Below, one piece after another: positions 5,656 to 43,330 of a stretch of DNA of 64,000 nucleotides. Origin of the DNA: Synechococcus sp. (GTDB lineage: Bacteria > Cyanobacteriota > Cyanobacteriia > PCC-6307 > Cyanobiaceae); contig JBJBEO010000001.1 of assembly GCA_047284725.1 (NCBI GenBank), positions 608,001 through 672,000 on the forward strand, given 5' to 3'. Position numbers and translations under genes: made by a program. Position 1 is the stretch's first letter. Each line of letters starts with the position of its first letter. The notes under the pieces are model-generated. The model ran no database searches. It worked only from the letters and a program-made list of their open reading frames with translations, and was not told the origin of the DNA.

Positions 5656-7599
5656 GTGTCCACCGACGTCCGCGCCCGCTGGATTCCGACCCCTCGTGAG
5701 CAGGTAGCTCTGGCTGCTCACCAACACGTGGATGGGCTTGGCCGGGTGGATCAGATCTGGCCCTGGTTGGCTCGCCATCATGGCGCCGTGATGGCCGTCG
5801 ATGCTCCCCATGCGGCGCACCCCGAGCGGTTCACCTACGAGGAGCTAGATGCCCGCATCCGTGTCGCAGCAGCAGGTTTGCGGGCTCTGGGGATCCAGTC
5901 CGGTGATGTGGTCGGGTTGTTTGCGGAAAACAGTCCCCGCTGGTTGGTGGCCGATCAGGGCTTGATGCGGGCCGGGGCGACCAGCGCAGTGCGCGGTGCC
6001 GCTGCGCCGACACCTGAACTTCTCTACATCCTGGATGACAGCGCGGCGGTGGCGCTGGTGGTGCAGAACGCCGACTTGTGGCAAAGGCTGGAGCTTTCCC
6101 CAGCGCAAAGGGAGCGCCTGCGCTGTGTGATCCAGCTCGAGGGTGACGCCTCTGAAGGCGTGATCGGATGGGAGGAGTTGCTGAAGCTGGGCTCTGAAGC
6201 GCCGACGCTGGATCCGGTGGCGGGTCGGGATGCAGCGAGCGCTGCTGTCACCACGGCCACGATCCTCTACACCTCAGGGACGACGGGCCAGCCGAAAGGG
6301 GTTCCCCTCACCCACGCCAACCTGTTGCACCAGATGCGCAGCTTGGCCTGCGTGGCCCATCCGGCCCCCGGTTCGCCCGTGCTGAGTGTGCTGCCGATCT
6401 GGCACTCCTATGAGCGCAGTGCTGAGTACTACTTCTTTTCCTGTGCATGCTCGCAGAGTTACACCACGATCAAACACCTCAAGAAGGATCTCCCCAGGGT
6501 GAGGCCAGTGGTGATGGCGACGGTTCCCCGTTTGTGGGAGGCGGTTCAGGCTGGTTTTGAGGATGTGTTGAAAACCTTCCCGGCCTCGCGGCAGCGCTTG
6601 TTGCGCTCTGCCCTTGCCAACAGCAGTGCCTATTGCCTGGCACGTCGTCGCAGTCGCGATCTGATGGTGGAGCCTCTGGGTAAGCGTCAGCGCGCCAAGG
6701 CGGCCCTAGAGGCCAGCCGCCGGTGGCCGGCCCACGCTCTGGCATCGGCATTGATCTGGCCCAAGCTGCGGCAGCAACTCAGTGGCGGCCAGCTTCAGTT
6801 CCCCATCAACGGTGGCGGTGCGATTGCCCCCCACGTGGATGCTTTTTACGAGGCTGTGGGGATTGAGCTGCTGGTGGGATACGGCCTCACGGAGACCAGT
6901 CCGGTGGTGAGTTGCCGCAGACCCTGGCGCAACATCCGCGGCAGCTCCGGGCAGCCCATGCCCCAGACCGAATTTCGGATTGTCGATGCTGAGACCCGGG
7001 CCCCCCTTGGCTTCCGTGAACGGGGAGTGGTGCTGGTCCGTGGGCCCCAGGTGATGGGGGGCTACCTCGGTCGACCCGATGCGACGGCCAAGGTGCTCGA
7101 TGCAGAGGGCTGGTTCGACACCGGCGATCTGGGCATGCTGCTGCCGGATGGCTCAGTGGTGCTTACTGGCCGTGCCAAGGACACCATCGTGCTGAGCAGC
7201 GGCGAGAATATCGAACCAGGCCCGCTGGAGGAGTGTCTTGTGGCCAGCCCTCTCGTGGAGCAGGTGATGTTGGTGGGTCAGGACGAGCGTCAATTAGGGG
7301 CCTTGGTGGTGCCCCGCAGCGAGGCCATCCAGGCTTGGGCGGCGCAGCAGGATGTCGATCTGCCATCGGATCTTGGTGGCTGCCCAGGGGATCAGGCCCT
7401 TCGCAAGCTGCTGCGCGGTGAGTTCAATCGCCTGCTGGCGGCTCGCCCGGGGGCGAGGGGTGATGAACGGCTGGCCGGTGTGGCGTTGGTTGAGCCCTTC
7501 TCGATCGAGAACGGCTTGCTGACCCAGACGCTGAAGCAACGACGTGATCGCATCAGCCGCCGAGATCAGGCGGCCCTCGAGGCTATTTTTCGCCCCTGA
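5656..7599 (+). CDS. aas: long-chain acyl-ACP/acyl-CoA synthetase (AMP-binding)
   Basis: YTSGTTGQPKG AMP-binding loop, GYGLTE, DTGD and GRAKDTIVLSSGENIEP. Confidence 0.85.
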   Translation: MSTDVRARWIPTPREQVALAAHQHVDGLGRVDQIWPWLARHHGAVMAVDAPHAAHPERFTYEELDARIRVAAAGLRALGIQSGDVVGLFAENSPRWLVADQGLMRAGATSAVRGAAAPTPELLYILDDSAAVALVVQNADLWQRLELSPAQRERLRCVIQLEGDASEGVIGWEELLKLGSEAPTLDPVAGRDAASAAVTTATILYTSGTTGQPKGVPLTHANLLHQMRSLACVAHPAPGSPVLSVLPIWHSYERSAEYYFFSCACSQSYTTIKHLKKDLPRVRPVVMATVPRLWEAVQAGFEDVLKTFPASRQRLLRSALANSSAYCLARRRSRDLMVEPLGKRQRAKAALEASRRWPAHALASALIWPKLRQQLSGGQLQFPINGGGAIAPHVDAFYEAVGIELLVGYGLTETSPVVSCRRPWRNIRGSSGQPMPQTEFRIVDAETRAPLGFRERGVVLVRGPQVMGGYLGRPDATAKVLDAEGWFDTGDLGMLLPDGSVVLTGRAKDTIVLSSGENIEPGPLEECLVASPLVEQVMLVGQDERQLGALVVPRSEAIQAWAAQQDVDLPSDLGGCPGDQALRKLLRGEFNRLLAARPGARGDERLAGVALVEPFSIENGLLTQTLKQRRDRISRRDQAALEAIFRP

Positions 7600-14797: not shown

Positions 14798-15406
14798 TCA
14801 GACCTTGCGGGAGTAGTACTCCACCACCAGCAGTTCGTTGATCTCAAGAGCAACCCACTCACGCTCGGAGCGGCCAATCACCTTGGCGCTGAGCTTGCTC
14901 TTGTCGAGCTCAAGGTGGGGCGGCACGTTGGCCAGACCGGGGAATTCCAGGTTGGCTTCGGCCAGCTTCTTGCTGCACTTGCGCTCGCGGATGGCGATCA
15001 CGTCGCCGGGCTTGCACTGGTAGCTGGCGATGTCGGTGACGCGGCCATTCACGGTCACGTGGCCATGGTTCACCAGCTGACGGGCGCCAGGCACGGTGGG
15101 GCCAAAGCCGAGGCGGAAACAAACATTGTCGAGACGGTTCTCGAGCAGTTTCAGCAGGTTGGTTCCAGTGGAACCTTCCTGGGCGCGCGCTTTCTTCACG
15201 TAACGCACGAGCTGACGCTCGGAAACGCCGTAGTTGAAGCGAAGCTTCTGCTTCTCTTCGAGGCGGATCGCGTATTCAGAGCGCTTGCGACGGGCTTGGC
15301 CGTGCTGACCGGGTGGATAGGACCGCTTTGCGGCCTTCCGGGTGAGACCGGGAAGGTCTCCCAAGCGCCGCGTGATCCTCAGGCGAGGGCCGCGGTAACG
15401 AGACAT
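14798..15406 (-). CDS. rpsD: 30S ribosomal protein S4
   Basis: [16 protein letters not shown]...LLENRLDN...ARQLVNHGH...VVEYYSR; 202 aa. Confidence 0.98.
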
Positions 15407-15457
15407 GGGATGGAAATCGGAGAACGATCGAGCATCTGAATCAGGCATGCTGGGCTG

Positions 15458-15745
15458 GTGGGCCGCGCTCCTGCTTTGACGCACGAATCAACAATCGTAT
15501 CTGGCGGACCTGCGGCAGCTCTGAACAAGCTGCTCGCGGCTGTGATGTTGGCGTTGATCGGGTTGTATCGCAGCTGGATCTCGCCGTTGCTCGGCCCACG
15601 CTGCCGCTTTGTTCCCACCTGCAGTGCCTATGGCCTGGAGGCGATCCAACGCCATGGCCCCTGGCGGGGAGGCTGGCTCACTTTGCGTCGTCTGTTGCGA
15701 TGCCATCCCTTCACTCCCTGTGGCTGTGATCCCGTTCCCGACTGA
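15458..15745 (+). CDS. yidD: membrane protein insertion efficiency factor YidD
   Basis: [18 protein letters not shown]...RLLRCHPF...DPVP; start approximate. Confidence 0.9.
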
Positions 15746-16034
15746 CGGCCAAACGCTGATCCTTTACAGCCGCCGGGGTTGCTGTTTGTGTGAGGGATTG
15801 GAGCAGCGCCTTCGCAGCCTGCCTCTGGCCTCACTCCACCCTCCGTTGCAGCTCCAGGTGATCGATATCGATGCCGTCGGGGTGGATCCGTCCCTGCGAG
15901 CTCGTTATGACCTGGAAGTCCCCGTGTTGTCGCTGGGCTCGATTCCCCTTCCCAGAGTGTCTCCCAGGCTTCAGGGAGACAGTTTGTACAGCTGGTTACA
16001 ACGGGCCTGTACCAGTGCGCTTGGATCGGACTAG
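15726..16034 (+). CDS. glutaredoxin-like protein (DUF836 type)
   Basis: [13 protein letters not shown] (CxxC) and RYDLEVPVL; start approximate. Confidence 0.8.
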
Positions 16035-16061
16035 AACTGCACCACCGATGGTGCTTGGCTG

Positions 16062-17597
16062 ATGGCTCAGACACTCCATGCACTGCTCCACGCGGTTGAT
16101 CTGCCCGTGGTGGAAAGCCTCCCCAATCCTGCGATTGCAGCCCTCACCTGTGATTCCCGCTGCGTCGGTCCAGGGTCACTGTTTCTGGGCCTTCCCGGGG
16201 AACGCGTCGATGGAGGCAGTTTCTGGCGTCAGACCTTGAAAGATGGCGCAGCGGCGGCTGTGATCGGATCGGCCGCTGCAGCGGCCGATCCCCCCGGTCC
16301 CAACGATGCTGTGGTGGTGGTTCCAGATCCGGTGGCCCACTGGCTCGGTGCGTTGGCTGCTGCGTTCTGGCAACACCCTTCGCGGCGCATGACCTTGGTG
16401 GGTGTCACGGGCACCAACGGCAAAACCACCGTGACGCATCTGATCGAACATCTGTGTGAGCAGACCGGGCGGCCTTCCGCGCTGTTCGGCACCCTGGTGA
16501 ACCGCTGGCCAGGCCGCACGGTCACCTCCACCCACACCACGGCCTTTGCGGATCACCTGCAAGCGCAGTTGGCTGAAGCGGTGGCAGCCGGTACGCAGGT
16601 GGCGGCCATGGAAGTGAGTTCTCACGCCCTGGATCAGGGGCGTGTTGCCGGCTGTCAGTTTTCGGCCGCGGTGTTCACCAATCTCACCCAAGACCATCTC
16701 GACTATCACCCGTCGATGGAGGCCTACTTCGAGGCCAAAGCACGGCTCTTCCGTGATCCTCTTCTCCTGAGCAACGGCCCCTGTGCCGTGGTCAATGTCG
16801 ATGACCCCTGGGGGCAGCGTCTGGCGGATCAGTTGGGTGAACGCTGCTGGCGTTGTTCGCTGCAACCGGACCGGACGGACGGGGAGGTGGAGCTCACCAT
16901 GACAGACCTGCTCATGACTGCCTCCGGCGTGAGAGGCCAGATCGTGACTCCCGTTGGATCGGCTCCTTTTCAGTCTCCCCTGGTGGGTGACTTCAACCTG
17001 ATGAACCTGCTTGAGGCGGTGGGGGTGCTGGTGCAGTTGGGGATGCCGCTGCCCTTGTTGCTGGACGCTGCAGCCTGTTTCAAGGGCGTGCCAGGACGGA
17101 TGGAGCGGGTGATGCTGCCCACGGCGCCGTCTCAGGCTGCGTTGCCCTCGGTGCTGGTGGATTATGCCCATACCCCCGATGGCCTGCGCAATGCCCTCGC
17201 CGCATGCCGCCCTTTTGTGGATGGTTCCCTGGTGTGTGTGTTCGGTTGCGGTGGGGACCGTGATCGTGGCAAACGGCCTCAGATGGCTGCGGTGGCAGCT
17301 GAGTTGGCCGACCGGGTTGTGGTCACCTCGGATAATCCCCGCACAGAGGATCCCCAGCAGATCCTTGACGATGTGGTAGCGGGTCTGTCTCCTGATGCCT
17401 CCAAGGTGGTGGAGGCTGACCGCGCTCAAGCCATTGCCCTGGCGATTCGTGATGCTCAGCCAGACGACCTGGTCTTGATCGCTGGGAAAGGTCATGAGGA
17501 TTATCAGATCCTTGGCACCAGCAAAATTCACTTTGACGACCGAGAACAGGCTGAGCTGGCACTGCGCCAATCTCTGCGCGTCAATCAGCTGGGGTAG
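16062..17597 (+). CDS. murE: UDP-N-acetylmuramoyl-tripeptide synthetase
   Basis: [38 protein letters not shown] and AGKGHE. Confidence 0.96.
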
Positions 17598-18691
17598 TAG
17601 TAAAACGCTGCTCCAAAGATTGAGAATGTTCCCAGCAACAAGACCCCCTCCAGCCAGTTTGATTTGGCATCCATGCCGACCAGGTTCACAATGAGCACGC
17701 TGAACAACAGTGCCAGGATTTCGAAGCCCTCGAAATCAAGATTCATGGGCTGATCAAGGAATGTCGCTGTGATCACAAGGGCAGGAGCGATCAGCAAAGC
17801 GACCAACAGGCTGGATCCCATCGCCAACGAGATCGGAAGATCCATTTCATTGTTCAACGCTCCTTTCACAGCGGGTACATATTCAGAAAATCCGCCGATG
17901 ATTGGAATGATGATCACGCCTGTGAACAGTGCGCTGAATCCCATCTGATCGGTTGCTGGCTCAAGAAAATGGATAAAGGCCTCAGATTGGAAAGCAAGAC
18001 ATGCGGTGCTCAAGATGAGCTGCAGGATCCAGGGGGCAACGGCGGTTGGAGGGTTGTCGTCGTCTTCATCAACGTGTTGAGATGATGGGGGGTCGAAAAG
18101 ATGGCTGTGTGTGGCCAGTGAAAAAAGAAGCGTTAAAAAGTAGATGGCAATGAGGATGATTGCCACAGTCACGGATAAGCCATGAATGGCGTGCACGTCG
18201 TCAATCCCTGATGTGCTAATCAAGGAGGCGGGAAGGGCTAATGCAATCACCGCGAGGGTCATCGTGGCTCCATGGGTGCGCACCATGGTGGGCTGAAAAT
18301 TTTGCTCGCTAAATCGCAGGCCTCCTACAAGCATGGCCAGGCCTGTAATCAGTAGCAGGTCGGAGAGAATCGCTCCTGTAATACTGGCTTTCACGACATC
18401 GATAAGGCCTGCACGTAGGGCCGCCAGTGCGATCACGAATTCGGCACAGTTGCCAAATGTAGCGGTGCAAATGGCTCCAATCGTTGGACCACTCAGCCTC
18501 GCAATCTCTTCTGTCGCGTCACTCAACAGCAGGGCGATTGGAATAATGCCAAGACCCGCCAGAATGAAGCCAGCCTCAGTGTTCCAGTGTGCATTGACGG
18601 CCAGTTGTGTCAGGGCAAGCATGGTGATGGCGGGGATCATTTTCCACCGTCCGTGCCTGAAGAAGGCCAGAGAATGCGTTAAGGCTCCCAT
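17585..18691 (-). CDS. Ca2+/H+ antiporter (CaCA/CAX family)
   Basis: About 11 TM segments, alpha-1 repeat ATFGNCAE, acidic central loop (DEDDD), alpha-2 repeat [12 protein letters not shown]...GSS and C-terminal SNWLEG. Confidence 0.88.
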
Positions 18692-19803
18692 CGCTGTGCT
18701 CCAAAAAATGTCAATTCGACATAGTCGCTGGCTTGGTTGTCGGAGTCAGTGAGATCAAACGTCATGCCATCGGCATTGAGTACTTTGATCGTTTTCAGGG
18801 CCTTCAACAATGTCTCTCGCGTGGGGTTTGGGCCTGCGCGCTCAAGGGCCTCAGTCATCAACTTGGCTGCAATGAACCCCTCGAGACTGGTAAAGCTGAA
18901 GCTTGCGTCTGTATTGGTGGATCGCATTAATTGCTGGTATTCAGCAACAACTGGGATCCAACGGTCCCATGGAAAGGGAACGACCTGGCTGACGCCGATG
19001 CCATTGGCCTGCCCTGCAGGTAGCGAGTCTTCGAGAGCCCTGCTGCCTACGAAGGATACATTCATGATCTGAATATCAAGATTATTCCTGAGAATTGTCT
19101 TGCTTAAAGCCGCTGAGCTGACGTACGCAGAAACGATAATTAAGCCATTGGGTCTGACCTCGTCGATGATACTGAATGCCTTGGCGATGTTGTCAGAGTT
19201 CCTTTGCACAGTGGCAATGCCGGCCGGTGTGAGGTTATGCTTTTTTAAAGCTTTTTTGGCCGCCGAGAGTCCGTCTTGTCCGAAGGCATCATCTTGATAA
19301 ACAATGGCAATTTTTTGTCGCGCGTCACGGACCAGGCTGTCAACGATCTTGTCAATTTCCATGCTGTAACTTGCGCGGAAATTGAACACCATCTTCAAGT
19401 CGGAATCCCTGAGCAGGCTTGCTCCACTCAGGGGGGCAATCAATGGGATCCGCTCGCTCTCAACGATGGGCAGAATGACTTTGGTTGTTGGTGTCCCGAC
19501 ATACCCAAACAAAGCGAGTAGGTCAGTGTTCTGAAGGAATGTCTTGGTGTTCTGGATGGTTCGTTGGGGTTCGTATTGGTCATCCAGGCTGGTGAGCCTG
19601 ATACGGCGCTGATGAATCCCCCCGCGACGATTCACTTCGTTGAACCAGGCAAGAGCGCCTGCTTGGTATTCGCGTCCTAACTGTCCTGACGGACCCGTTA
19701 ACGGAAGTGACTGACCGATGACGACCTGGTTGTCTGATGTTGGTGAATAGGCGCGTCTGCTTTTTTCTGCCGTTGCTTGCGTTGTCGCTAACATTAAACC
19801 CAT
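18679..19803 (-). CDS. orphan periplasmic ligand-binding protein, LivJ/branched-chain amino acid (PBP type I) family
   Basis: IGQSLPLTG, VNRRGGIHQRRIRL..LDDQYEP, YQDDAFG and EGFIAAK; start uncertain because the ORF stays open further upstream into the divergent gene. Confidence 0.85.
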   Translation of the reverse strand: MGLMLATTQATAEKSRRAYSPTSDNQVVIGQSLPLTGPSGQLGREYQAGALAWFNEVNRRGGIHQRRIRLTSLDDQYEPQRTIQNTKTFLQNTDLLALFGYVGTPTTKVILPIVESERIPLIAPLSGASLLRDSDLKMVFNFRASYSMEIDKIVDSLVRDARQKIAIVYQDDAFGQDGLSAAKKALKKHNLTPAGIATVQRNSDNIAKAFSIIDEVRPNGLIIVSAYVSSAALSKTILRNNLDIQIMNVSFVGSRALEDSLPAGQANGIGVSQVVPFPWDRWIPVVAEYQQLMRSTNTDASFSFTSLEGFIAAKLMTEALERAGPNPTRETLLKALKTIKVLNADGMTFDLTDSDNQASDYVELTFFGAQRWEP

Positions 19804-19885
19804 CACAAGCAGCGCTTGGATGACGTTTAGCCGTGTGACTGTCTCTTGATTTGATGATGAACACTGCCTTCCCTTTGGGCCGGAA

Positions 19886-21121
19886 ATGACACGCAAACGC
19901 CGTCGCAGATGGAACATTCTCGCTTTGGTGTCGATCCTGATGGCGGTGATGCTTTCGATCATTGCCCTCAGCAATCTTAATGTTGAAGCGGTTAAAGGGC
20001 GTGATTCCTTGCGTCTTTCTTCCGGTTCTCGTGCTCTCACCACTGATCCCAGGCGTCTGCCTCCCGATGGATGGTCGTCTCTGCGCGGGACCCGTCTGGT
20101 GGGCCCAGAGTTAGAGGCCGATATCAAATCCCTGAATGAAGCTCAATATCGAGTCAGGGTTGGAATCTATGCAAACAGTACCTATGACTTGGATTTAAGC
20201 GTACCAAGTTTTTCGTCGAATGGATACATTTGGCTGCGATGGCAGCAACCCCTCCAGGATTACCTAGATGAGCAGGAGTTGTCGCTGAGTGATCGGATTG
20301 GCCTTGTCAATGTCTTGCTGTCTGACGCGGAGCCCGAATTGATCCCGGTGCAGGAAGAGCCCGTCAAGCTCGAGGATGGAGATTATTATCAGCTGTATAA
20401 ATATGTTGGTCGCTTTTACGTCGATAAGGCGAGCTTCGTGCGTTTTCCCTTCCTTACGGTGAGTCTCCCAATTGCAGTGGAGGCTGTGGATGTTGATGGG
20501 TCGTTTGATTACTCCCGTTTTCGTTTTGAAGCCGATGTTCAGAACAGTGGGATGGGCCTGTATGCAGGAACTGGCATCATTGGATGGCGCAGTCGTGGTT
20601 GGTCAATCGCTGAGTACCGCCATAATTATTCGACCAATTTTGGCCTTGGTGGTGATGAGGATGATTACAGCACTGTGATTTTTGATATCACATTTGGCAC
20701 CTCTTCATGGTCAGCCTTCTGGAGGCTGATTCTTCCTCTGATGGTGGTGATGACGATGGTTCTTCTGGTTTTCAAAGTGCGTCCGGACGAGCAGGATGCA
20801 CGCGCTGGGATTCCCGTCACGGTGTTGCTCACACTGGTCTTTCTTCAGCAGGTTTATCGCGATGAACTTCCCGATTTGCCGTATCTCACCTTTCTTGACA
20901 AGGTCTATGTGATTGCTTATGTCGTGACCTTGGTGGCTTTTGTGCTTTTGATCTGGATCGGTCGACGTTATTCCGACGTTGACAAGATCCCAGAAGGACC
21001 ATTGCGAGACCGTCTGGAAATGCGGCTACAGGTTCTTGATGAGGTCTGGCCTATGGCCATGGTGGTGTTTTGTGCAGTTGCCGTTGCCTTCTCGTGGCTT
21101 TCGATTCCCGCCAGTACTTGA
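19886..21121 (+). CDS. prokaryotic pentameric ligand-gated ion channel (GLIC/ELIC-like Pro-loop receptor)
   Basis: N-terminal basic plus hydrophobic signal or anchor; beta-sandwich ECD motifs VRVGIY..DLD..SF..YIWLRW and Pro-loop RFPF; then 4 TM helices: M1 WRLILPL, M2 RAGIPVTVLLTLVFLQ, M2-M3 loop LPDLPYLTFLD, and M4. Confidence 0.8.
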   Translation: MTRKRRRRWNILALVSILMAVMLSIIALSNLNVEAVKGRDSLRLSSGSRALTTDPRRLPPDGWSSLRGTRLVGPELEADIKSLNEAQYRVRVGIYANSTYDLDLSVPSFSSNGYIWLRWQQPLQDYLDEQELSLSDRIGLVNVLLSDAEPELIPVQEEPVKLEDGDYYQLYKYVGRFYVDKASFVRFPFLTVSLPIAVEAVDVDGSFDYSRFRFEADVQNSGMGLYAGTGIIGWRSRGWSIAEYRHNYSTNFGLGGDEDDYSTVIFDITFGTSSWSAFWRLILPLMVVMTMVLLVFKVRPDEQDARAGIPVTVLLTLVFLQQVYRDELPDLPYLTFLDKVYVIAYVVTLVAFVLLIWIGRRYSDVDKIPEGPLRDRLEMRLQVLDEVWPMAMVVFCAVAVAFSWLSIPAST

Positions 21122-21124
21122 CGT

Positions 21125-22312
21125 TCAGTCAAGATTGCTGATCCGATTGGTTAATGATCTGAGCTCTTCTTCGGTGGTGCTGATGTGCGTGCAGGCTCGC
21201 AGGCACTTGGGGGAAGCGAGGTCACGGATCCACAGGTTTTGCTCACCCAGTTGCTTTACTACGGCGGCCGGTGCGATTGGCTTCAGTGCTGGATGTAGTT
21301 GGAAGCTCACAAGACCGGCTGGGGGAGGTCCCTTCAGCAGGGGATTGACTCCAGGCAGCTCGGCAAGCTGATGCCAGAGCTTGTCGCTGAGGTCCTGAAT
21401 CGTTGCCAGGCGTTCGTCAGTGCTGCCCTCCTGTTCAAGCAGCTCCAGGGAGGTGCGAAGCCCAGCCAGCAGGGGGACACAACTGGTGGCCACCTCGAAA
21501 CGGCGGCTGTCGTGGTGGAAAGGATCGGGGTCGCCGAAGACGGCCCGGCTTTCGTCCTGCAGGCTGCGCCAGCCGATCAGGGTGGGGTTGGCTTCATTCA
21601 GCACCCGCTCAGACAGGGCCACACCCCCAAGTCCTTCCGGGCCGCAGCACCATTTGTGTCCGGTGAAGGCATAGATATCGGACGCAGCAGCAGCCTCGGC
21701 CACGGGGATCTGGCTCATGCTTTGCGCCGCATCCACCAGCAGATAGGGGTGGTTGGGATGATCTCTGAGTTGATCGGCAACGTCCGCAATCGGCATCAGC
21801 TGTCCTGTATTCCAGAGCAGGTGGGACAGCACCACGACCCGGGTGTTGGGGTGCAGATTCGCCTCGATGGCGGCAAGCACGGCTGCATCATTGCCGCTCT
21901 GCTGCTCGCGGCCGCCGAGAACCTGCTGAACAGGCAGGGTGTCGATGTCGAGATGCTGGCGACGGGCCAGTTCATGGCAGGCGGCCACCACGCCGGGATG
22001 CTCGCAGTCGCCAATCAACAGACGATCGCCCTGGTTGAGGGGCAGGCCCCACAGCGGCAACACGCAGCCACTGGTGACGTTTTCGCTGAGGGCCAGGCGA
22101 TGGGGGGCAACACCGCACAACCCTGCCAGCTGTGCTCTGGTGCTGTTCACTTCCCGGCTGATGTAGGGCCAGACGTCGGCGGTGAAGGGTCCCAGCTCCT
22201 GGATGCGATGCCAGCTGCTGGTGATGGCCTCAAGCGAAGGCGCCGGCAGTGGACCCTGCCCCCCATAGTTGAAGTAAGTCTTGTTCTGAAGGGCAGGGCA
22301 GAGAGACCTCAA
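21125..22312 (-). CDS. class V aminotransferase (cysteine desulfurase/lyase-like)
   Basis: YFNYGGQGP, SHLLWNTG, VDAAQS and TGHKWCCGPEG (PLP Lys); the ORF is open to 22408 but the conserved core begins near the TTG at 22312. Confidence 0.85.
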   Translation of the reverse strand: MRSLCPALQNKTYFNYGGQGPLPAPSLEAITSSWHRIQELGPFTADVWPYISREVNSTRAQLAGLCGVAPHRLALSENVTSGCVLPLWGLPLNQGDRLLIGDCEHPGVVAACHELARRQHLDIDTLPVQQVLGGREQQSGNDAAVLAAIEANLHPNTRVVVLSHLLWNTGQLMPIADVADQLRDHPNHPYLLVDAAQSMSQIPVAEAAAASDIYAFTGHKWCCGPEGLGGVALSERVLNEANPTLIGWRSLQDESRAVFGDPDPFHHDSRRFEVATSCVPLLAGLRTSLELLEQEGSTDERLATIQDLSDKLWHQLAELPGVNPLLKGPPPAGLVSFQLHPALKPIAPAAVVKQLGEQNLWIRDLASPKCLRACTHISTTEEELRSLTNRISNLD

Positions 22313-22901
22313 GTGGCCTGCGCTGTTGTTGGTCGAGGCGTTCCTTGCGCCGTCCAGATTTGCCATGTCCATGCCATGTCCATGCACCATCAGTCTTGCT
22401 GACGCCAAGCTGCTGTGTCATCCGCTGTGCATCCCATCGTTGCTTTGGCGGCGTGGAAGCACAGAGTGGATTGGGCCTCAATCAGACAAGGTGAGAGTTG
22501 CCTTGGTAAGGATCATACTGATCGGGCAATCGCGATGGCTCTTAGTCAGCTGACTTGATCTTTGAGTGTGCTGATCATGTGTGTAAGTCTGTCATTGTTT
22601 CTGTATACAGCAGTGCGACCTTTTCAAAGGAATGAGGGATCTTCTTCGAGGTCAAGCCAGGTGCGAGACAATTTGAGCACCAATTTATGTGGTTTTCGCG
22701 TTAAGACTCTGTGAGCGTTTTGGTGATGCGTCAGTTTCGCCAATAAGCGTAATTGCTGGCAATCTTTCCTCAATTTGTGCTTTCTAATTGGCGTCTCTTC
22801 GGATGAGTTAATCGCGTCCTCTTGCGTCTGCTTAGAAAATAAGCAATCTATCTAAGGCGTTTGGTGGGCTGCTTAAGGACAAGTTTTTGATTGTGCCAGG
22901 G

Positions 22902-24035
22902 TTAAGCAAGTTGAGCTGCATAATTTTGGATATCACTTCCTTCGAAGGCTATGAAATTTGAGTTTGTAGTGTCTAGTAGGGAGTCATTGACATCCCAGCC
23001 TAAGTCGTCAAGAACTCCTAATGTAACCATGCTTAAAGATTGAGTTTCGGCATTGTAGATATCTAAATAACCAATATGCAAATCATTGTGGAGGGGATTG
23101 TATTTGCCGTTGATGATTTCATCGCTCTCCCAATGGGCTCCTGCAGTTCCTGAGCCGCCTCCGTTTTCAAGGACTGGGTTGGTAATAACGTCTTCTCGAG
23201 TTGCAAACTCTGATTCAACCCATTCTTCAAAGATTGTATTAGCCTTGCTTCCGTTAAAATAAAATCTATCGTCGTTGTTTTTATCGATACTCTCGTCCCA
23301 ATTGTCGTCGCCTGGAAAGCCCAGTGAGTGAATAAGTTCGTGAGCAAGGAGGTGGGTAAATGATTTGTATTGATTGCTAATCATGGCGTCTGTGTAGCGA
23401 GGGTTCAGGATGATTGTTCCCTCATCGGCAAGACCGTTTGTATTATTATCACTACTTGGGTAAGAGCCTCCCAGTGTTCCACCGCCTAGCCATTTCTCGA
23501 AGCCAAGATCCAGCTTGAATGTTTCAATCTCTGCAGCGGGGCCAGGAAACTCATCAAACCAACTGCTGACAAAGTCCAATGCATTGTAGATTGATTCATA
23601 ATATGGATTATAATTAAAGTTACTTATTAATGTAACATCAAATTGGAGTTGACTTGTTCCGTAGCGAATGAGTTCATGACTTTCTTGATCTGTTGTGCCG
23701 AAATATGCTTCATAAGGATTTAGGGGATCTTCGTTCCCTCCACCGTTAGGCCCTTTGTCCTTCGGTTTATTTCCTCCTCTTGCTTTGTCGATACCGAAAT
23801 CAACAAAGTCCTGCCTGTCAACATCAATTGTTTCAGCTTCCTGTTGCTTAAGTTCGGCGGCAAAACTTTTTAGAGGAAGATCTAGATCACCATTAATATC
23901 AGGATCAAAATCGGCTTGGCTGCTTTCTTGCGTATGTTCCAAGTCGAATAATGAGCCAGTAATATATTTGCTACGATAATTAAGATTTTCGATGGAAAAA
24001 TTAGTTAACTTGTCAAGAATCGTTAAATTTTTCAT
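22902..24035 (-). CDS. leishmanolysin (peptidase M8)-like zinc metalloprotease
   Basis: HELIHSLGF zinc motif, ENGGGSGTAGAHWE (third His) and LSMVTLGVLDDLGW; AT-rich gene. Confidence 0.78.
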   Translation of the reverse strand: MKNLTILDKLTNFSIENLNYRSKYITGSLFDLEHTQESSQADFDPDINGDLDLPLKSFAAELKQQEAETIDVDRQDFVDFGIDKARGGNKPKDKGPNGGGNEDPLNPYEAYFGTTDQESHELIRYGTSQLQFDVTLISNFNYNPYYESIYNALDFVSSWFDEFPGPAAEIETFKLDLGFEKWLGGGTLGGSYPSSDNNTNGLADEGTIILNPRYTDAMISNQYKSFTHLLAHELIHSLGFPGDDNWDESIDKNNDDRFYFNGSKANTIFEEWVESEFATREDVITNPVLENGGGSGTAGAHWESDEIINGKYNPLHNDLHIGYLDIYNAETQSLSMVTLGVLDDLGWDVNDSLLDTTNSNFIAFEGSDIQNYAAQLA

Positions 24036-24084
24036 GCGAATTCTATGGATTCAACTGATTTAATTTTATCCGAGCATGTTGGAT

Positions 24085-24117
24085 TTTTCCTGAAAATTCC
24101 CTTAGATTTTTCTGAGG
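24085..24117 (-). promoter_or_regulatory. putative response-regulator box (3 direct repeats, 11-bp period) upstream of the M8 protease
   Basis: Minus strand CTCAG-aaaaat-CTAAG-ggaatt-TTCAG-gaaaa. Confidence 0.45.
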
Positions 24118-24887
24118 TGCTTGTCGATCGCGTATTGATTGGCGGCGTTATTGGCTAGGTGAAAAATGTGAATTTGTCGAGGTTTTTGATTTTGTATATT
24201 ATCAATGGTTTAGAGTCTGATTCCTTTCCTTTCCGTTTTTGGGCTCGATTCTCTTGAGATCTTTAGGTCTGTTTCGTGGTCAGCTTGTGATGGTTTCTCT
24301 CTGGTCTTCGTTCATTTCATAAGGCTAACGCTTGTCGTTGATTGATGATTTCGCGATGGTATTGCACCTTCTTGAGTCTCGCCCCTGCATCGCCCGCTGT
24401 CGTCTTGGCGGGTTGGTGTTGACGGGCCTGTTGGCAATGGCTTTTCAATCGAACCCTAAAAGCTCAATGCATTCTGAGTTTGTTCTTGCTTGTCTGTTGG
24501 TGGTGCAGGGTCCTCTTGGTCAAGGCGGAACAACGGTCTCGTTGAAGTATGGCCGATGCAGGCAGCATTAGTGGATAACTTTTGCTGTCATGCTGTAGTT
24601 CTGCAGCTTTACGCATGTACGCATCTTGTTCACCGTGCATTTGTTGCATGGTGTTTGTGTCGGAGGTTGTGACTCCAGAAAGATCGATTCATGTGGTGTA
24701 TGGCGCTAAATACTTCTAAGAATGGGCTTCACTGGAGGGAGTGCAAGTCCTTGCCCTGTGAGGGTATCCGGCTGAAAAGTGTAGTGGCTGCTGGTGTTTC
24801 TGGACGCTTCACCCTTCAACCGGTAGCCCATCGAAAGCCTGCCCGGAACGTCATCGCTAGCGTCCCAAAATAAGTCGCTGATCATCG

Positions 24888-25634
24888 ATGACGGCAGTGG
24901 ATTGGCTTTGGATCCTTCACCCCTTTCTGGCGGTGGTGCTGATCTATCCCCTGATCGGCATGGTGATGCGGCTTGGTTTGCAAACCCGGGCTCGCCGCCA
25001 GAAGACCAATCTCAAACTTCCACCCAGCCTTGGGCGAAGCCATACCGATCTCGGCCGGTGGCTCGCTGCTGGGGTGGTGGGACTCGTGTTGATCGCTCTG
25101 ACGGTGGTGATTGCCACCAAGGTGCCACTGGCTGACTTCTCTGGGGGCGCCCCTCGGGCGCTTCAGCTGCTGCTCGTGCTGATTGGAACCGTGATCAGTT
25201 TGGTGGCGTTGTGGCGCAGTCAGTCCCCAGGGTTGCGGTTGGCGTTTGCCCTAATCACCTGGGCGGGGATTCTTGGCCTTGGTGCCCAGCCGGAGGTGTG
25301 GCGCCTCTCGGACAATCCGCTCACCGCCGCCTTCTGGCAGTCCCATTACTGGGCGGGTGTTGGGGTGACAGGTCTGATGTTGTTTTCTCTGGGGGCCCGG
25401 CCTGAGATCGTGCGTGATCTGCGCCTGCGTCGGTTGCACATTACGGCCAGCGTGCTAGCCGCCGTGCTGTTTGTGGTTCAGGGCCTTACTGGCACCCGTG
25501 ATCTGCTTGAGATTCCGCTCACCTGGCAGAAACCGGCGGTGTATGCCTGCGATTTCGACAGCCGGACCTGCCCTTCCCCCGTTGCAGAGATCATTTCCCC
25601 TACGCCATCGGGGACCGGTTCATCGGCCCCGTGA
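24888..25634 (+). CDS. DUF4079-like membrane protein
   Basis: Multi-TM protein; WILHP, HTDLGRW, WQSHYW, RRLH and GTRDLLEIPL resemble cyanobacterial DUF4079 proteins. Confidence 0.65.
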   Translation: MTAVDWLWILHPFLAVVLIYPLIGMVMRLGLQTRARRQKTNLKLPPSLGRSHTDLGRWLAAGVVGLVLIALTVVIATKVPLADFSGGAPRALQLLLVLIGTVISLVALWRSQSPGLRLAFALITWAGILGLGAQPEVWRLSDNPLTAAFWQSHYWAGVGVTGLMLFSLGARPEIVRDLRLRRLHITASVLAAVLFVVQGLTGTRDLLEIPLTWQKPAVYACDFDSRTCPSPVAEIISPTPSGTGSSAP

Positions 25635-25764
25635 GGTCGATGTGAAAGCTCACACTCCTCTGGCGCCTCCTCCGAGGCCTCGAACGCAGAGGTGACGAGA
25701 AGGGCGGAGAAACGCCCTATACCCACCCGACTGCGCCAACAGAATCGCTGCCGTTGGTGTGGCG

Positions 25765-26010
25765 TCAGAGCACTTGCACCACTTCGCTCACTTCAGGGAT
25801 GGCTTCCCGCATCTTGCGCTCAATCCCCATCTTCAGGGTCATGGTGCTGCTGGGGCAGCTGCCGCAGGCGCCCTGCAGCCGCACTTTCACTACGGGGCCA
25901 TCGATTTCCACCACTTCCACGTTGCCGCCGTCAGCCATCAGGAAGGGGCGCAGTTCATCGAGCACCTTCTCCACGTTCTCACTGGTGAGGGGCAGGGTTT
26001 CGGTACTCAT
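25765..26010 (-). CDS. NifU/NfuA-type Fe-S scaffold
   Basis: [13 protein letters not shown]...[20 protein letters not shown]. Confidence 0.93.
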
Positions 26011-30275: not shown

Positions 30276-31589
30276 TCACTGAGAAGAAACCGGAATGTCT
30301 TTGCGCTGATCCCTGAAAATTAATATTTCTACGCCGGTAAGAGATAACGTTTTAGGGCTTGCAGGTACGGTGTTATCAGTGACAGTGCAGGAAGTGCGAT
30401 CACATGATTGACTTAACACATAATTGGCTGTACCTCCATTTGCAAAATTCTCAGTAAAATAAACAACATCAAGGTTATCCCCGCCGTCGATTTGAAAATT
30501 TCCACGCCCTGGAACGTACTGATTGTATCCATTGCCGCCATCAAGTATTTCGATTTCAGTTGTTGATTGGCTATTGTTCCCGTTGCCAATGAGAATATCA
30601 TTGCCATCTACTATTGCGTCATTTGTTGGGCAGTCATCAGAGAATTGATCTCCATAAATAGTATCGATGGTTTCGGTTCCTTCAATAACATCACTCCCAT
30701 TGCAACCAATTAAAGATGTTGATGATGTTCCACCCGCTTCAATTAAATCGTCGAAACTACTTCCAGTAATGCTAGTGACTTTCCCAACACCACAGATCAA
30801 GATATCTCTCCCATCTGTCACACTGGTTATTCCTCTATCTTCTGCATTGAATGTGGTGTCGCCTTCGTTTGGGGTAAATTTTGGCAAACTACCGCCAGCA
30901 AAATCGCAAAGACCAAGTGCGTTTGGCTCAGTGTAGAGCGGATTATTGCGTGTGTTAGCTGAAAAGGTGTCGGAATAACGAAGAGGAACTTTGTTCTCGC
31001 CTCGATCTTGCTCCATGGAGAGAGTGAACGTTATCAGTCGACCTGTTGTTTCGGTGGGATCGGTGGATACTGAAAATCCATCGCTGCTTAATCCATCGAT
31101 TAAACGTTGCGGCAATGGTGCTGTAGCAGTTTCATCAATCACCGATAAGTATTGGCCGCGTTCATCAAAGCTCGGTCCACATCTCCATAATGATTTTTCA
31201 CCGAACCATCCCGAAACAGAACTCCCTTGACTATCTAATGATGAACTTGCTAAGGCATAGATTGAAGGATAAAAGTCAGCTCGAATGTCTAGCGCAAAGA
31301 GGAAGGAAACACCAGCTGTGTTGAAAAGTGCTGTGCAAGTGGATGGTATATCGATCTTAGACGGATCAGTGATGATCGCTTCAGACAAGCTGACTTCAGA
31401 TTCAATAAACTTCGTGGTTCGATCCCAATTTTTTCGCTGACGCTGATAAGCTTCGCTCCGTTCATTGACTCCAAGCTGGCTGACAAAAAAGTTAAAAGCT
31501 ACAATCGTAATAAATGATGTGATGAACAGAGTTACAAGTAACTCAACAAGAGTAAAACCTTGCTTTAAAAAGCGTTTGTGTAGTTGCAT
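30276..31589 (-). CDS. large type IV minor pilin (PilW-like) with C-terminal RTX-like Gly/Asp repeats
   Basis: KQG|FTLVELLVTLF prepilin site; later GSSFDDLIEAGG, GCNGSDVIEG, GNDILIGNG, DGGNGYN and GGDNLD. Confidence 0.8.
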   Translation of the reverse strand: MQLHKRFLKQGFTLVELLVTLFITSFITIVAFNFFVSQLGVNERSEAYQRQRKNWDRTTKFIESEVSLSEAIITDPSKIDIPSTCTALFNTAGVSFLFALDIRADFYPSIYALASSSLDSQGSSVSGWFGEKSLWRCGPSFDERGQYLSVIDETATAPLPQRLIDGLSSDGFSVSTDPTETTGRLITFTLSMEQDRGENKVPLRYSDTFSANTRNNPLYTEPNALGLCDFAGGSLPKFTPNEGDTTFNAEDRGITSVTDGRDILICGVGKVTSITGSSFDDLIEAGGTSSTSLIGCNGSDVIEGTETIDTIYGDQFSDDCPTNDAIVDGNDILIGNGNNSQSTTEIEILDGGNGYNQYVPGRGNFQIDGGDNLDVVYFTENFANGGTANYVLSQSCDRTSCTVTDNTVPASPKTLSLTGVEILIFRDQRKDIPVSSQ

Positions 31590-32133
31590 GATCCTCCAAT
31601 GTAAAGTCCTTCTCGAAATAAACCGAGGGGAGCTAAAATGTTGATACAACGTGTTTGAGTGTTGCCGTTTCTAAGAGGCTCACTTTCGAATAAAATCTCA
31701 CCTCCGCAAGGAACTGAACCAGTCGGCGGGAAAATAAGATACAAGTTATCATTATCGCTTAGGCAAACCGGATTTAAGCCTGCTGGATATTCAAAGCGTT
31801 CAATGCTGGCATTAAATCGATGAGGTGCGATCCCACTGCAGTATTCGTTGGATGTAATGTAGGTGAATCCTGTGTAAGATTTAGCAATATCGTTGTCACC
31901 AGCACTAGCCGCTTTTTCTATTTTAATCGCACAGATTTTATTTTGCTCGAGAGCTTTTGTTTGAATGGATTGAAGCCAGCTTGCATCTTCATTCACATCT
32001 TTTTGTGTTGAGCTTTAATAACTTGATCCCTAAACACCACAAGCGAGAGACCTAACATTGCGCCGACAAGTGCCAGAACAATAATTAGTTCTGTCAAAGA
32101 GAAACCGCTATCTCTTTGTCTAAGAATCATCAT
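31565..32133 (-). pseudogene. FimT/GspH-like minor pilin split by a 1-nt frameshift
   Basis: ATG at 32133 gives MMILRQRDSG|FSLTELIIVLALVG...KAQHKKM* (stop 31995-31993). The rest continues in another frame (DVNEDASWLQ... to 31565). The shift falls at a 5-A run (T5 at 32000-32004 on +). Confidence 0.75.
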
Positions 32134-36501: not shown

Positions 36502-37113
36502 TTACGAGATGGTTGCGCAGTCGATATCCGCATCAATGGTTGGCCAGGATGATCCCCCCGCTTCGGTAAATACACCATCATCAGTATAATCATTAATGTA
36601 TGTATCTACAGTGGCGCCTGCGGCAGTATCGACTAAGCCACTCGAGACATCTGTTTTGCCTGAGATCAAATTGACGCAACTAAAAGCTGCTTTGTCGACG
36701 ATGGATGCATCGCCACCATCAGCAACGGGAACCGAGACAGCCACGCACAGGACGGATTCATCACCAGCTACAGCATCTGTCGTTCTTGTAGATAACGTTC
36801 CTGTCTTGTCACATTTGTAATTGAACTTCCCCCCAACTTCACTCGCGGCTAGGGCTACCGATTCGCCAATTTTTCCTTGCTCTTGCCACTCAGCATGAGA
36901 TTGTTTGATGATTGCTGACATTTTGGACTTGGCTTCTGTCGCCTTTGCTTTCTCGGTCTGGCTGAGGAAGTTGGGCAAGGCAATTGCAGACAAAATGCCC
37001 ACAATCACGATCACGATCATCAGCTCCACCAGCGTGAAGCCTTTTGCGAGCGCGTTGCGGCCTGTTTTGCGATTGAGGAGCGCCAGTTGAAGGCGCGAGT
37101 TCAGAGAAGTCAT
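36502..37113 (-). CDS. pilA: type IV major pilin
   Basis: MTSLNSRLQLALLNRK...KG|FTLVELMIVIVIVGILSAIALPNFL (cyanobacterial PilA leader and alpha1), four Cys and its own strong terminator. Confidence 0.88.
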   Translation of the reverse strand: MTSLNSRLQLALLNRKTGRNALAKGFTLVELMIVIVIVGILSAIALPNFLSQTEKAKATEAKSKMSAIIKQSHAEWQEQGKIGESVALAASEVGGKFNYKCDKTGTLSTRTTDAVAGDESVLCVAVSVPVADGGDASIVDKAAFSCVNLISGKTDVSSGLVDTAAGATVDTYINDYTDDGVFTEAGGSSWPTIDADIDCATIS

Positions 37114-37187
37114 GTCTGAAAGATGGAGAAGCACCCTCGGTGCGTACCTTTTCATTGTTCAGCCACACGGGAATCCATGGGTGGAAA

Positions 37188-37239: not shown

Positions 37240-38517
37240 ATGCGTGTGCTCCCCTCGCTGAGGCTCTGGTTGCTCTCCACCGGCACGCTCTCTGTGATTG
37301 CAGGCTATGCCCTGTTGCTAGGGGTGCATTCCCTGCTGGCGCGGCAGCAACGTTTGCAGACCCATCAACAGCTGGTGATGGTTGTTGCGGAGCAGCGGTC
37401 ATTGTTCGAGCTGAATGCGGAAGCGCGGGCTCCATTCGGGGTTGAAGTGGCGATGTTGCCCAACGGGAAAGCGCAAGCCCCCAGGCTGGAGCACGCCGCC
37501 AATGGCGATACCTGGCTGAGCAGTGCCACACCTTTGATGGCAGAGAGTGGATCGATGCCGTTGCTGTTGGTGCGTCAGAACGTGACGGCATCGTTGGCCT
37601 ATGAGCAAAGGCTTCAGTTGCTTCTGATTGCCGCAGCCGGGGTGTCAACTCTGCTCACGGCCGCCTTGCTTCGGCTGGTGCTCTGGCGCGGCCTGATGCG
37701 ACCGCTGCATGATCTCAGTGAACAGCTTGATGGCCTCAGTGTTGATGCCCTTGGGCAGCAGTTGATTCGGTTGGACGATCAACCCCAGGAATTGCAATCG
37801 ATTGCCTCGGCCTTCAATGGCGTCCAGCAACGACTCTCGGGAGCCTGGCAGCGGGAACGCCGCTTTGTGGATGGGGTTGCCCATGAATTGAAAACGCCGA
37901 TCACCTTGATCTCAGGTCGCTCCCAGCGCTTGCTCAAGGAGCCCCTCACCGCTGATCAGAGCCATGTGCTGGGACGGATCGCTGCAGAGGCCTCCCGGAT
38001 GGCGACCCTGATTTCAGCCCTGCTTGAACTGGCCCGCAATGATGCAGGGCGCCTGACCCTTGATCTGCAGCCGTGGGATCCGGAGCAGTTGCTGGTGGAA
38101 GCTTTCGAGCGCTTTGAACCCCTCGCCCCCAGCCGACTACTGCTGGCAGGCTCGACCCCGAACGGTTGCCCGCCGATTCTGGTCGATCGTGAGCGGCTTC
38201 AGCAATGTCTGTTGGCACTGGTGGATAACGCCCTCGCTTACAGCCAGGCTTCGGTGATGCTCAGTGTGAGTTTTGGCCACGACCCCAGCGGAGCCTGGGT
38301 CCGCTTGCATGTGCTTGATCGCGGTCCAGGCATTCCTCTGCAGGAAAGGGAACGGGTGTTGGAGCGATTTGTGCGCGGCACCAGTTCCATGGGCACCCGC
38401 GGCAGTGGTATCGGTCTTGCGGTGGTTCAGGACCTCTCGATTGCCATGGGTGCTGCGCTGGTGATTGAAGACCGTGACGGCGGAGGTGCTGATCTGCAGC
38501 TGCGTTTCAAGGCTTGA
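37240..38517 (+). CDS. sensor histidine kinase (2 TM, HAMP, HisKA, HATPase)
   Basis: VAHELKTPIT H-box, LVDNALAY N-box, DRGPGI and GSGIGL. Confidence 0.9.
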   Translation: MRVLPSLRLWLLSTGTLSVIAGYALLLGVHSLLARQQRLQTHQQLVMVVAEQRSLFELNAEARAPFGVEVAMLPNGKAQAPRLEHAANGDTWLSSATPLMAESGSMPLLLVRQNVTASLAYEQRLQLLLIAAAGVSTLLTAALLRLVLWRGLMRPLHDLSEQLDGLSVDALGQQLIRLDDQPQELQSIASAFNGVQQRLSGAWQRERRFVDGVAHELKTPITLISGRSQRLLKEPLTADQSHVLGRIAAEASRMATLISALLELARNDAGRLTLDLQPWDPEQLLVEAFERFEPLAPSRLLLAGSTPNGCPPILVDRERLQQCLLALVDNALAYSQASVMLSVSFGHDPSGAWVRLHVLDRGPGIPLQERERVLERFVRGTSSMGTRGSGIGLAVVQDLSIAMGAALVIEDRDGGGADLQLRFKA

Positions 38518-39226: not shown

Positions 39227-39287
39227 CCCTCTCCAGGCAGCGTATGCATGGCAGGAGGGGAATGCTCTGACCAGTTGCACGGATGCG

Positions 39288-43206: not shown

Positions 43207-43330
43207 GCCTTCATCTTCATCGCCTCCGCAAGGTTCTGCAGCAAGAATGCGACCAGCACGCACACATCAAAGACCAGTGAGCTTTGGTTTTTCGTCCTTG
43301 GGGCTGTCGTATTCGAGTCTTTCCGCCCGG

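Follow-up and report, generated by a model that had tools for sequence, protein, structure and literature searches.

A stretch of 64,000 nucleotides from Synechococcus sp. (assembly GCA_047284725.1, contig JBJBEO010000001.1, positions 608,001 to 672,000), referred to here as the window, carries three intact genes at 17585-21121, which form a block of lower GC content between murE and an aminotransferase gene. These are a plus-strand gene encoding a 411-aa subunit of an ion channel of the pentameric ligand-gated type (pLGIC, also called Pro-loop receptor; 19886-21121), a divergently oriented minus-strand gene for a LIVBP/LivJ-like secreted type-I periplasmic binding protein (PBP; 18679-19917) and, following the latter on the same strand, a gene for a 368-aa CAX-type Ca2+/H+ exchanger (17585-18691). 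The present analysis concerns the relationship among these three products, and above all the relationship between the channel and the binding protein.

The block is tightly packed among its neighbours. On its left side, the 3′ ends of the CAX gene and of the core gene murE (16062-17597, plus strand; TIGR01085, 515.6 bits; GC 0.627, GC at third codon positions (GC3) 0.68) overlap convergently by 13 nt, while on its right side the channel gene ends at 21121, 3 nt away from the open reading frame (ORF) of a second core gene, which encodes a class-V aminotransferase/cysteine desulfurase-like protein (21125-22408, minus strand; Aminotran_5, E 4.5e-31; GC 0.620, GC3 0.72). Inside the block, the binding-protein stop codon (18679-18681) lies past the CAX ATG (18689-18691), and the two genes overlap by 13 nt. 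The GC content of the block was 0.49-0.55 against 0.61-0.66 in the flanks, and GC3 reached 0.60, 0.57 and 0.53 for CAX, binding protein and channel, respectively, against 0.68-0.76 in six neighbouring genes. In this way, the three genes, both outer junctions, the overlap between the binding-protein stop and the antiporter start, and the lower GC content, all reported in a preliminary description made from the sequence of the window, were recovered from the ORF coordinates and base counts. The same description had pointed out the lack of a matching ABC permease or ATPase, and indeed neither an ABC ATPase nor a LivH/M-type permease (BPD_transp_2) was found among the 95 window ORFs of at least 150 aa; one unrelated BPD_transp_1 permease is encoded at 43139-44146. 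No Rfam match was found within 15000-26000, and promoter and terminator scans gave results at chance level.

Identity of the channel, the binding protein and the exchanger

When searched alone, the window channel remained below the curated thresholds for pLGICs in Pfam and NCBIfam (Neur_chan_LBD, Neur_chan_memb and LGIC_1). It obtained 19.5 bits with Neur_chan_memb (cutoff 28.1), no match with the LBD model and 29.4 bits with LGIC_1 (cutoff 500; E 5e-7), and phmmer gave an E-value of 5e-5. A family profile built from 84 relatives, drawn from 1327 matches, aligned with structures in the Protein Data Bank (PDB) over about 310 residues spanning both the extracellular domain (ECD) and the transmembrane domain (TMD), with E-values of 2.7e-35 for the GLIC chimera 5osa, 1.9e-34 for ELIC 2yks and 4.9e-29 for GLIC 4il9, in an overall range of 2.7e-35 to 1e-27. 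Since the LBD model matched 13 of the 84 relatives and the membrane model 8 of them (E ≤ 0.01), the curated models are, as judged from these scores, too narrow for this channel subfamily.

The AlphaFold2 (AF2) model of the channel (pLDDT 90.8, pTM 0.85) presented an N-terminal helix, a beta-sandwich and four transmembrane (TM) helices, with a helix at residues 74-85, strands within 88-272 and helices at 274-297, 303-325, 336-367 and 372-406. Foldseek placed GLIC 4ila first (E 3e-19, TM-score 0.77 on the target), and GLIC, sTeLIC and ELIC were matched with E-values from 3e-19 to 3e-17 and TM-scores of up to 0.78 on the target. The pLGIC fold that the preliminary description had suggested, and for which it had proposed profile searches and structure prediction, was thus upheld by both approaches, and profile and model together identify the 411-aa protein as a real pLGIC subunit, for which assembly into a homopentamer and a ligand-gated conductance are predicted.

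The Pro-loop proline P188, which aligns with the proline of the GLIC YPFD motif, and the M1 proline P284 were invariant in 84/84 sequences; in the available text of PMC4795631, the proline that caps the beta6-beta7 (Pro/Cys) loop is given a defining role. The charge pair between the Pro-loop Asp and the pre-M1 Arg, which is called universal in the part of Tasneem 2005 (PMC549065) that was available, is absent from the window channel, where the corresponding residues are L190 and T272. In the wider family, D or E occupied position 190 in 46/84 sequences and R or K occupied position 272 in 52/84. The two positions co-varied, with both charges present in 39 sequences, neither in 25 and a mixed state in 20 (Fisher p = 3e-6, uncorrected for relatedness).

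The binding protein passed the family cutoffs of Peripla_BP_6 (166.5 bits against 31.7; E 1.7e-48) and ANF_receptor (40.9 bits against 25.4), and its closest PDB matches were 3lop (1.4e-49) and 4kv7 (7.9e-49). The same two entries headed the Foldseek results of its AF2 model (pLDDT 74.7), with E-values of 2e-25 for 4kv7 and 3e-24 for 3lop, and the protein is a type-I PBP with a predicted two-lobe fold. The NCBIfam equivalog scores were far below their cutoffs, with 43 against 477 for LivJ and 22 against 493 for UrtA. The ligand class could not be inferred, as the closest structures are structural-genomics entries whose titles name no ligand; among the more distant matches, the ligands are amino acids, aromatic acids, urea or amides. 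The gene start is uncertain, with in-frame candidates at 19917 (ATG), 19896 (TTG), 19806 (GTG) and 19803 (ATG) and a longest ORF extending to 20127. With either of the first two, the 5′ end of the binding-protein gene overlaps the channel start codon on the opposite strand. The N-terminus contains a hydrophobic stretch ending in A-T-A, recognized by eye as a putative signal peptide, and the mature protein would comprise about 360 aa. Strong constraint was observed on this protein, with a mean column identity of 67% and 66 invariant columns among 38 orthologues.

The exchanger obtained 319.8 bits for TIGR00378 (cutoff 211.15), an E-value of 8.5e-33 for Pfam Na_Ca_ex and full-length PDB matches to Vcx1 4k1c (6.9e-58) and YfkE 4kjr (1.4e-55). 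With these proteins of the CAX family, to which it is related at E 1e-55 to 1e-58, it shares the glutamates of the alpha repeats: both the alpha-1 (GNCAEF) and the alpha-2 (GGFSEY) Glu are kept and align with the Vcx1 glutamates. However, the alpha-2 motif differs from the GNAAEH of Vcx1 in the replacement of Asn and His, and GGFSEY is invariant in 5/5 orthologues. On the evidence of the equivalog model and of these acidic residues, the protein is a CAX family member, and the corresponding transport specificity is predicted. The upstream start of the gene is supported because G14, W16 and K17, which precede the next Met, are invariant in 5/5 orthologues.

Linkage of the three genes in other picocyanobacterial genomes

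One genome scan, in which an alignment of 15 closer sequences served as query and the best 80 of 279 relatives were kept, yielded 77 loci, all picocyanobacterial by title or by similarity, with channels 55-81% identical to that of the window. A divergent binding-protein gene was found less than 600 nt upstream of the channel gene in 70 of the 73 loci whose upstream sequence extended to 400 nt or more. The remaining three loci (L036, L056 and L041), which represent two independent losses of the binding protein, all retained an intact channel. In L056, a 234-aa ORF (6208-6912) with a signal-peptide-like N-terminus, on the same strand just upstream of the channel, was considered as an alternative partner and rejected, given that L036 contains only a 35-residue remnant of it and that no PDB match was found. 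Six loci (L013, L017, L024, L025, L034 and L063) bear the titles of Salipiger, Bifidobacterium, Bradyrhizobium, Bordetella and Chitinophaga metagenome-assembled genomes; their channels are 57-65% identical to that of the window, and five of them have the binding-protein neighbour, while the sequence of L017 stops short upstream of the channel. Mislabelling or contamination of the bins is the probable explanation, rather than gene transfer.

The pair was found in at least three genomic contexts. Besides that of the window, it adjoined genes for an ABC1 kinase, an Orn/Lys/Arg decarboxylase, a sigma factor, a pseudouridine synthase and others. Across 68 pairs of a binding protein and its neighbouring channel (L043 was left out on account of X), the patristic distances of the two trees correlated with r = 0.91, a value reached by none of 500 label shuffles. 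Moreover, the pair has been duplicated as a unit, since in the tandem-pair loci L055 and L060 each binding protein and its adjacent channel share their nearest relatives; a further tandem arrangement is probably present in L066. Hence the tight link between the two genes that the preliminary description had built upon, and for which it had proposed a neighbourhood survey, holds in linkage, co-duplication and mirrored trees, and it fits the idea of a split receptor.

These results bear on another explanation, namely that the protein is an orphan substrate-binding protein (SBP) serving a distant Urt/Nat-type ABC importer and that it sits next to the channel only through a common bidirectional control region or ancient synteny. 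The annotation of the family is that of an ABC substrate-binding protein, and the closest solved structures carry ABC-type names. In addition, a review of picocyanobacterial binding proteins (PMC8786288) describes, in its available portion, orphan SBPs of marine Synechococcus, including orphan urtA genes without known partners, and suggests that they use other ABC machinery. However, the pair was kept in several unrelated contexts, duplicated as a pair and linked in nearly all loci, and cognate ABC genes were missing both from the 95 window ORFs mentioned above and from the 16 most frequent neighbour clusters that the scan of the 77 loci covered, so that the binding protein shows no membership of a LivJHMGF/Urt-type importer in these neighbourhoods. 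Considering also the second channel module described below, this explanation is improbable. The 69 divergent intergenic regions contained 0 occurrences of the NtcA motif GTAN8TAC, against a shuffled mean of 0.75, and likewise 0 of the Fur-like and Pho-like patterns.

The exchanger behaved differently from the pair. A CAX gene lay beside the pair in only four of the 77 loci (L001, L005, L009 and L016), in addition to the window, and all four presented the window's order, murE-CAX-binding protein-channel-aminotransferase; in the other 73 loci, it was missing within about 7 kb. When only the loci with room beyond the binding-protein stop were counted, CAX was missing from 56 of 60. The association is therefore lineage-specific and corresponds to a single evolutionary event, and, given that the pair occurs in varied contexts and CAX in one, the conserved, relocatable unit consists of the binding protein and the channel, not of three genes. 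The three-gene unit put forward in the preliminary description consequently fails outside one lineage. According to that proposal, the liganded binding protein would open a Ca2+-permeable channel and CAX would restore cytoplasmic Ca2+, in a receptor/channel/reset arrangement. It is favoured by the stop/start overlap between the binding-protein and CAX genes, which is also present in L001, by the low GC3 common to all three genes and by the position of CAX directly downstream of the binding protein in 4/4 loci of the window context with room. Cyanobacterial Ca2+ influx via unidentified channels has also been described (PMC4284465, available part). However, apart from the rarity and single origin of the association, Ca2+ permeability is not readable from sequence, and we regard this three-gene reading as rather unlikely.

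In 34 of the 60 loci with room, the place directly downstream of the binding protein was instead occupied by a gene for an unnamed 3-TM protein of about 155 aa, unrelated to CAX, for which no Pfam, NCBIfam or Atlas name was found. This gene (for example, L012:281-760) lies on the same strand as the binding-protein gene, 14-154 nt downstream of it, and its product shows by eye three hydrophobic stretches and a C-terminus reading DFDNFDQFF. It is kept in L041, where the binding protein is lost, and does not occur in the window.

It could also be supposed that the block is a laterally acquired ion-homeostasis island, in which a pH- or ion-gated channel, like GLIC, sTeLIC or DeCLIC, acts with CAX in pH, salt or Ca2+ homeostasis and the binding protein is a passenger. 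The low GC and GC3 of the block between core genes, the pH gating of the closest structural matches GLIC and sTeLIC, and the Ca2+ modulation of DeCLIC reported in the available text of PMC9897478 would suit such a view. However, it is the binding protein that is the constant partner of the channel and CAX the rare one, and the strong constraint on the binding-protein sequence is hardly that of a passenger, which makes this possibility very improbable.

Other features of the window were noted in passing. A second island of much lower GC (0.37-0.44) occupies 22300-24750 and holds a 377-aa ORF (22902-24035, minus strand; GC3 0.37) that had no Pfam or NCBIfam match and whose translation contains, by eye, an HExxH-like stretch. 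The island is apparently an insertion confined to the lineage of the window, since the spacing between the aminotransferase and DUF4079 genes is only about 50-300 nt in L005, L009 and L016. Two ORFs with a type-IV-pilin N-methylation motif and genes for a histidine kinase and a response regulator (30276-31649, 36502-37155, 37240-39460 and 41722-43263) appear unrelated to the block.

The pore, the N-terminal extension and a second channel module

The pore-lining M2 helix (residues 303-325; 20792-20860, plus strand) was located by alignment to the M2 of the GABA-A alpha1 TMD in the GLIC chimera. Its residues D304 (-2′), R306 (0′), T312 (6′), L315 (9′), F319 (13′) and Q322 (16′) belong to a stretch that is invariant in 40 orthologues, and across the wider family an acidic residue occupies position 304 in 76/84 sequences and L315 is kept in 82/84. 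Anion channels carry the motif Pro-Ala-Arg. The acidic -2′ residue next to Ala-Arg resembles GLIC rather than that motif, so that the channel is probably cation-selective. Acidic residues are found at both -2′ and 20′ of the pore, and the three-gene proposal could claim these as well.

Between the signal/anchor helix and the canonical ECD, the channel carries about 50 conserved extra residues (36-86; 19991-20143, plus strand). Within this extension, the motif R39-D40-x-L42-R43-L44...R49...W63...G68...E75...D79 was invariant in 37/37 orthologues linked to a binding protein, and positions invariant in these 37 channels are replaced in the loci without a binding protein. For identity to the linked consensus, the extension/ECD ratio was 0.43, 0.49 and 0.69 in the three loci lacking a binding protein, against 0.73-1.05 in the 37 linked ones. 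In L041, identity to the nearest linked relatives was 0.59 in the extension and 0.78-0.83 in the ECD, whereas these relatives were 0.86 identical to each other in both regions alike. From this pattern of conservation, the extension may be a candidate docking site for the binding protein.

However, the ECD of the channel, including a loop-C-like stretch (residues ~244-262), is itself nearly invariant in the 40 orthologues, and a ligand site in the channel itself would be compatible with this. The binding protein could then merely enrich the solute or deliver it to the orthosteric site of the channel, without allosteric gating, and such a hand-off would also agree with the three loci that keep an intact channel without a binding protein. 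Nevertheless, the additional divergence of the extension where the binding protein was lost fits a protein-protein contact better, and we know of no established precedent, among channels, for a binding protein of high affinity passing its ligand to a site of lower affinity. Ligand hand-off or concentration, a model stated in the available part of PMC549065 (Tasneem 2005), is thus considered quite unlikely here.

A second, independent coupling of a channel with a type-I binding protein was found in two of the loci. A distant paralogue of the channel is found a few kb from the first pair in both L005 (Synechococcus sp. WH 8017) and L003, where it overlaps the start of a same-strand gene for a UrtA-like binding protein (L005:10739-15222; L003:5037-8690). 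This paralogue is 29% identical to the window channel and was aligned to its family by hhalign with a probability of 100 and an E-value of 1.6e-62, and the UrtA-like protein obtained 444 bits with TIGR03407, below the cutoff of 493, and an E-value of 1e-124 with Peripla_BP_5. L003 also has another copy of the paralogue, divided between two frames. The window does not contain this module. The coupling of an unrelated, UrtA-like type-I binding protein to a channel paralogue, with overlapping genes, argues further against an orphan SBP that is adjacent to the channel by chance of synteny or control.

In L005, a gene for an arginase-family protein with three EF-hands is divergent from the channel paralogue. 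In L068 (457-3735), the region downstream of the binding-protein gene of a first-type pair holds an EF-hand arginase gene, 53% identical to that of L005, and a gene for a UT-family urea transporter with C-terminal EF-hands. Proteins of nitrogen metabolism that carry Ca2+-binding domains are thus repeatedly close to such modules. These neighbours give weak, circumstantial support for a Ca2+ link and might be cited for the three-gene arrangement, in which Ca2+ is the permeating ion; however, they adjoin modules in only 2 of the 77 loci. No paper combining EF-hand, arginase and Synechococcus was found in the literature search.

A proposed two-component channel and its relation to known systems

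The interpretation favoured here is that the pair constitutes a two-component ligand-gated channel, in which the secreted binding protein acts as the solute sensor and governs a cation-selective pLGIC through contact with its periplasmic domain, and a probability of roughly 0.55 is attributed to it. In this scheme, the binding protein would capture a small periplasmic solute, for which a nitrogen compound is a guess based on the neighbouring genes. The liganded protein would then dock on the periplasmic domain of the channel, probably with participation of the N-terminal extension, and docking would open the cation-selective pore, so that a chemical cue would produce an ion flux or alter the membrane potential. 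The exchanger, whose gene is translationally coupled to that of the binding protein in the window, would be a lineage-specific add-on and not a defining component. It probably came in, or was kept, along with the block, and it could extrude Ca2+ if the channel passes Ca2+, although a Ca2+ flux with a CAX "reset" is speculative.

Several observations weigh against this interpretation. Mirrored trees are expected for any vertically co-inherited neighbours, and the linkage was seen only within picocyanobacterial loci whose channels share the 55-81% identity given above. Upstream of their one channel, two loci (L047 and L077) carry two binding-protein genes from separate paralogue groups, and there the proximal binding protein comes from a different paralogue group than the channel. 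Urt/Nat-type ABC permeases, if encoded elsewhere in the genome, could serve the binding protein. With regard to the extension, the ratio of 0.69 in L041 is barely below those of its relatives L031 and L039 (0.73 and 0.75), and, as the three loci represent two independent losses, the divergence is suggestive only as an argument for a contact site. The high conservation of the ECD, including the loop-C region, means that the channel may bind a ligand directly. Finally, a fusion of the binding protein to this channel subfamily, which the preliminary description had named as a check, was not found in searches for longer relatives, which are weak evidence. Longer relatives of the channel did not appear, six long representatives had no binding-protein domain, and none of the 24 longer matches to the binding protein contained a channel domain. 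The nearest of the latter were tandem binding proteins, Ser/Thr kinases, a 7TM receptor and a cyclase. The two best of these matches, P0270 and P0273, showed binding-protein domains only and no channel similarity, and were rejected and read as tandem binding proteins.

A prediction of 2005 had already assigned accessory binding domains to prokaryotic pLGICs, and the separate, divergently transcribed PBP-I/channel pair is a variant of that theme. To our knowledge, none of the accessory-domain systems of that kind has been tested experimentally. As far as its available text goes, the work of Tasneem, Iyer, Jakobsson & Aravind 2005 (PMC549065) described PBP-I domains fused N-terminally to pLGICs (Magnetospirillum and Bradyrhizobium), PBP-II or Cache genes standing alone within predicted pLGIC operons and one pLGIC in an operon with a Na+/H+ transporter (Microbulbifer), and it proposed functional cooperation. 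Its alignment includes a Synechococcus sequence, and the binding-protein/channel pair may already be drawn in its Figure 3. The window system shares with those described in that text the channel superfamily, the PBP-I superfamily (LIVBP/ANF_receptor) and the logic of an extra periplasmic sensor; however, it does not have the PBP-fused architecture, since its PBP-I is separate and divergently transcribed, and its channel carries a conserved 50-residue N-terminal extension of its own. In our literature search, pLGICs were linked with solute-binding-protein neighbourhoods only in this 2005 study, and no later treatment was found. Jaiteh et al. 2016 (PMC4795631) inventoried the pLGICs of Synechococcus and Prochlorococcus, and in the available portion of that article neighbourhoods go unmentioned, with 'periplasmic' and 'operon' occurring 0 times. 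DeCLIC of Desulfofustis, as presented in the accessible parts of PMC9897478 and PMC12664993, is likewise a bacterial pLGIC with an extra periplasmic module and a link to Ca2+, but its N-terminal domain consists of two fused jelly-roll lobes, whereas the window system has a separate PBP. With GLIC, ELIC and sTeLIC, the window channel has in common the fold, the Pro-loop proline, the M1 proline, the 9′ Leu and the GLIC-type acidic -2′ residue; it differs from them by an identity of only 17-18%, by an N-terminus some 85 residues longer, by L190 and T272 replacing the residues of the canonical salt bridge and by its pairing with a binding protein.

Binding-protein-dependent receptors are known in bacteria, such as the chemoreceptors that work with MBP or GGBP, LuxP-LuxQ and TorT-TorS. 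In the proposed two-component channel, a free periplasmic binding protein would likewise present its ligand state to a membrane receptor, whether in place of a transporter or in addition to one, but the output would be an ion channel instead of a kinase or a chemoreceptor. The stimulation of signalling receptors by SBPs is treated in the available sections of PMC9602780 and PMC10443332.

A wider and more doubtful scheme can be outlined, in which marine and freshwater picocyanobacteria would use free binding proteins as sensing subunits of Ca2+-permeable pLGICs, in a pathway from a nutrient, probably a nitrogen compound, to Ca2+, with the EF-hand arginase-family proteins and urea transporter as effectors and CAX as the reset. 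We consider this quite improbable as a whole; if true, it would give a partner to the orphan binding proteins of Synechococcus, including orphan UrtA, and a physiological role to prokaryotic pLGICs.

The physiological role and the natural ligands of bacterial pLGICs are still unknown, though GLIC and ELIC serve as models of human neurotransmitter receptors. The pair described here is conserved and co-duplicated in very abundant, partly culturable phytoplankton, and it thus offers a concrete test system in which one can ask whether a binding protein gates a Pro-loop channel, which ligand is involved and whether the output is Ca2+ or voltage. It also suggests that some 'orphan' substrate-binding proteins, which are now counted as nutrient-uptake capacity in ocean genomics, may have a role other than transport.

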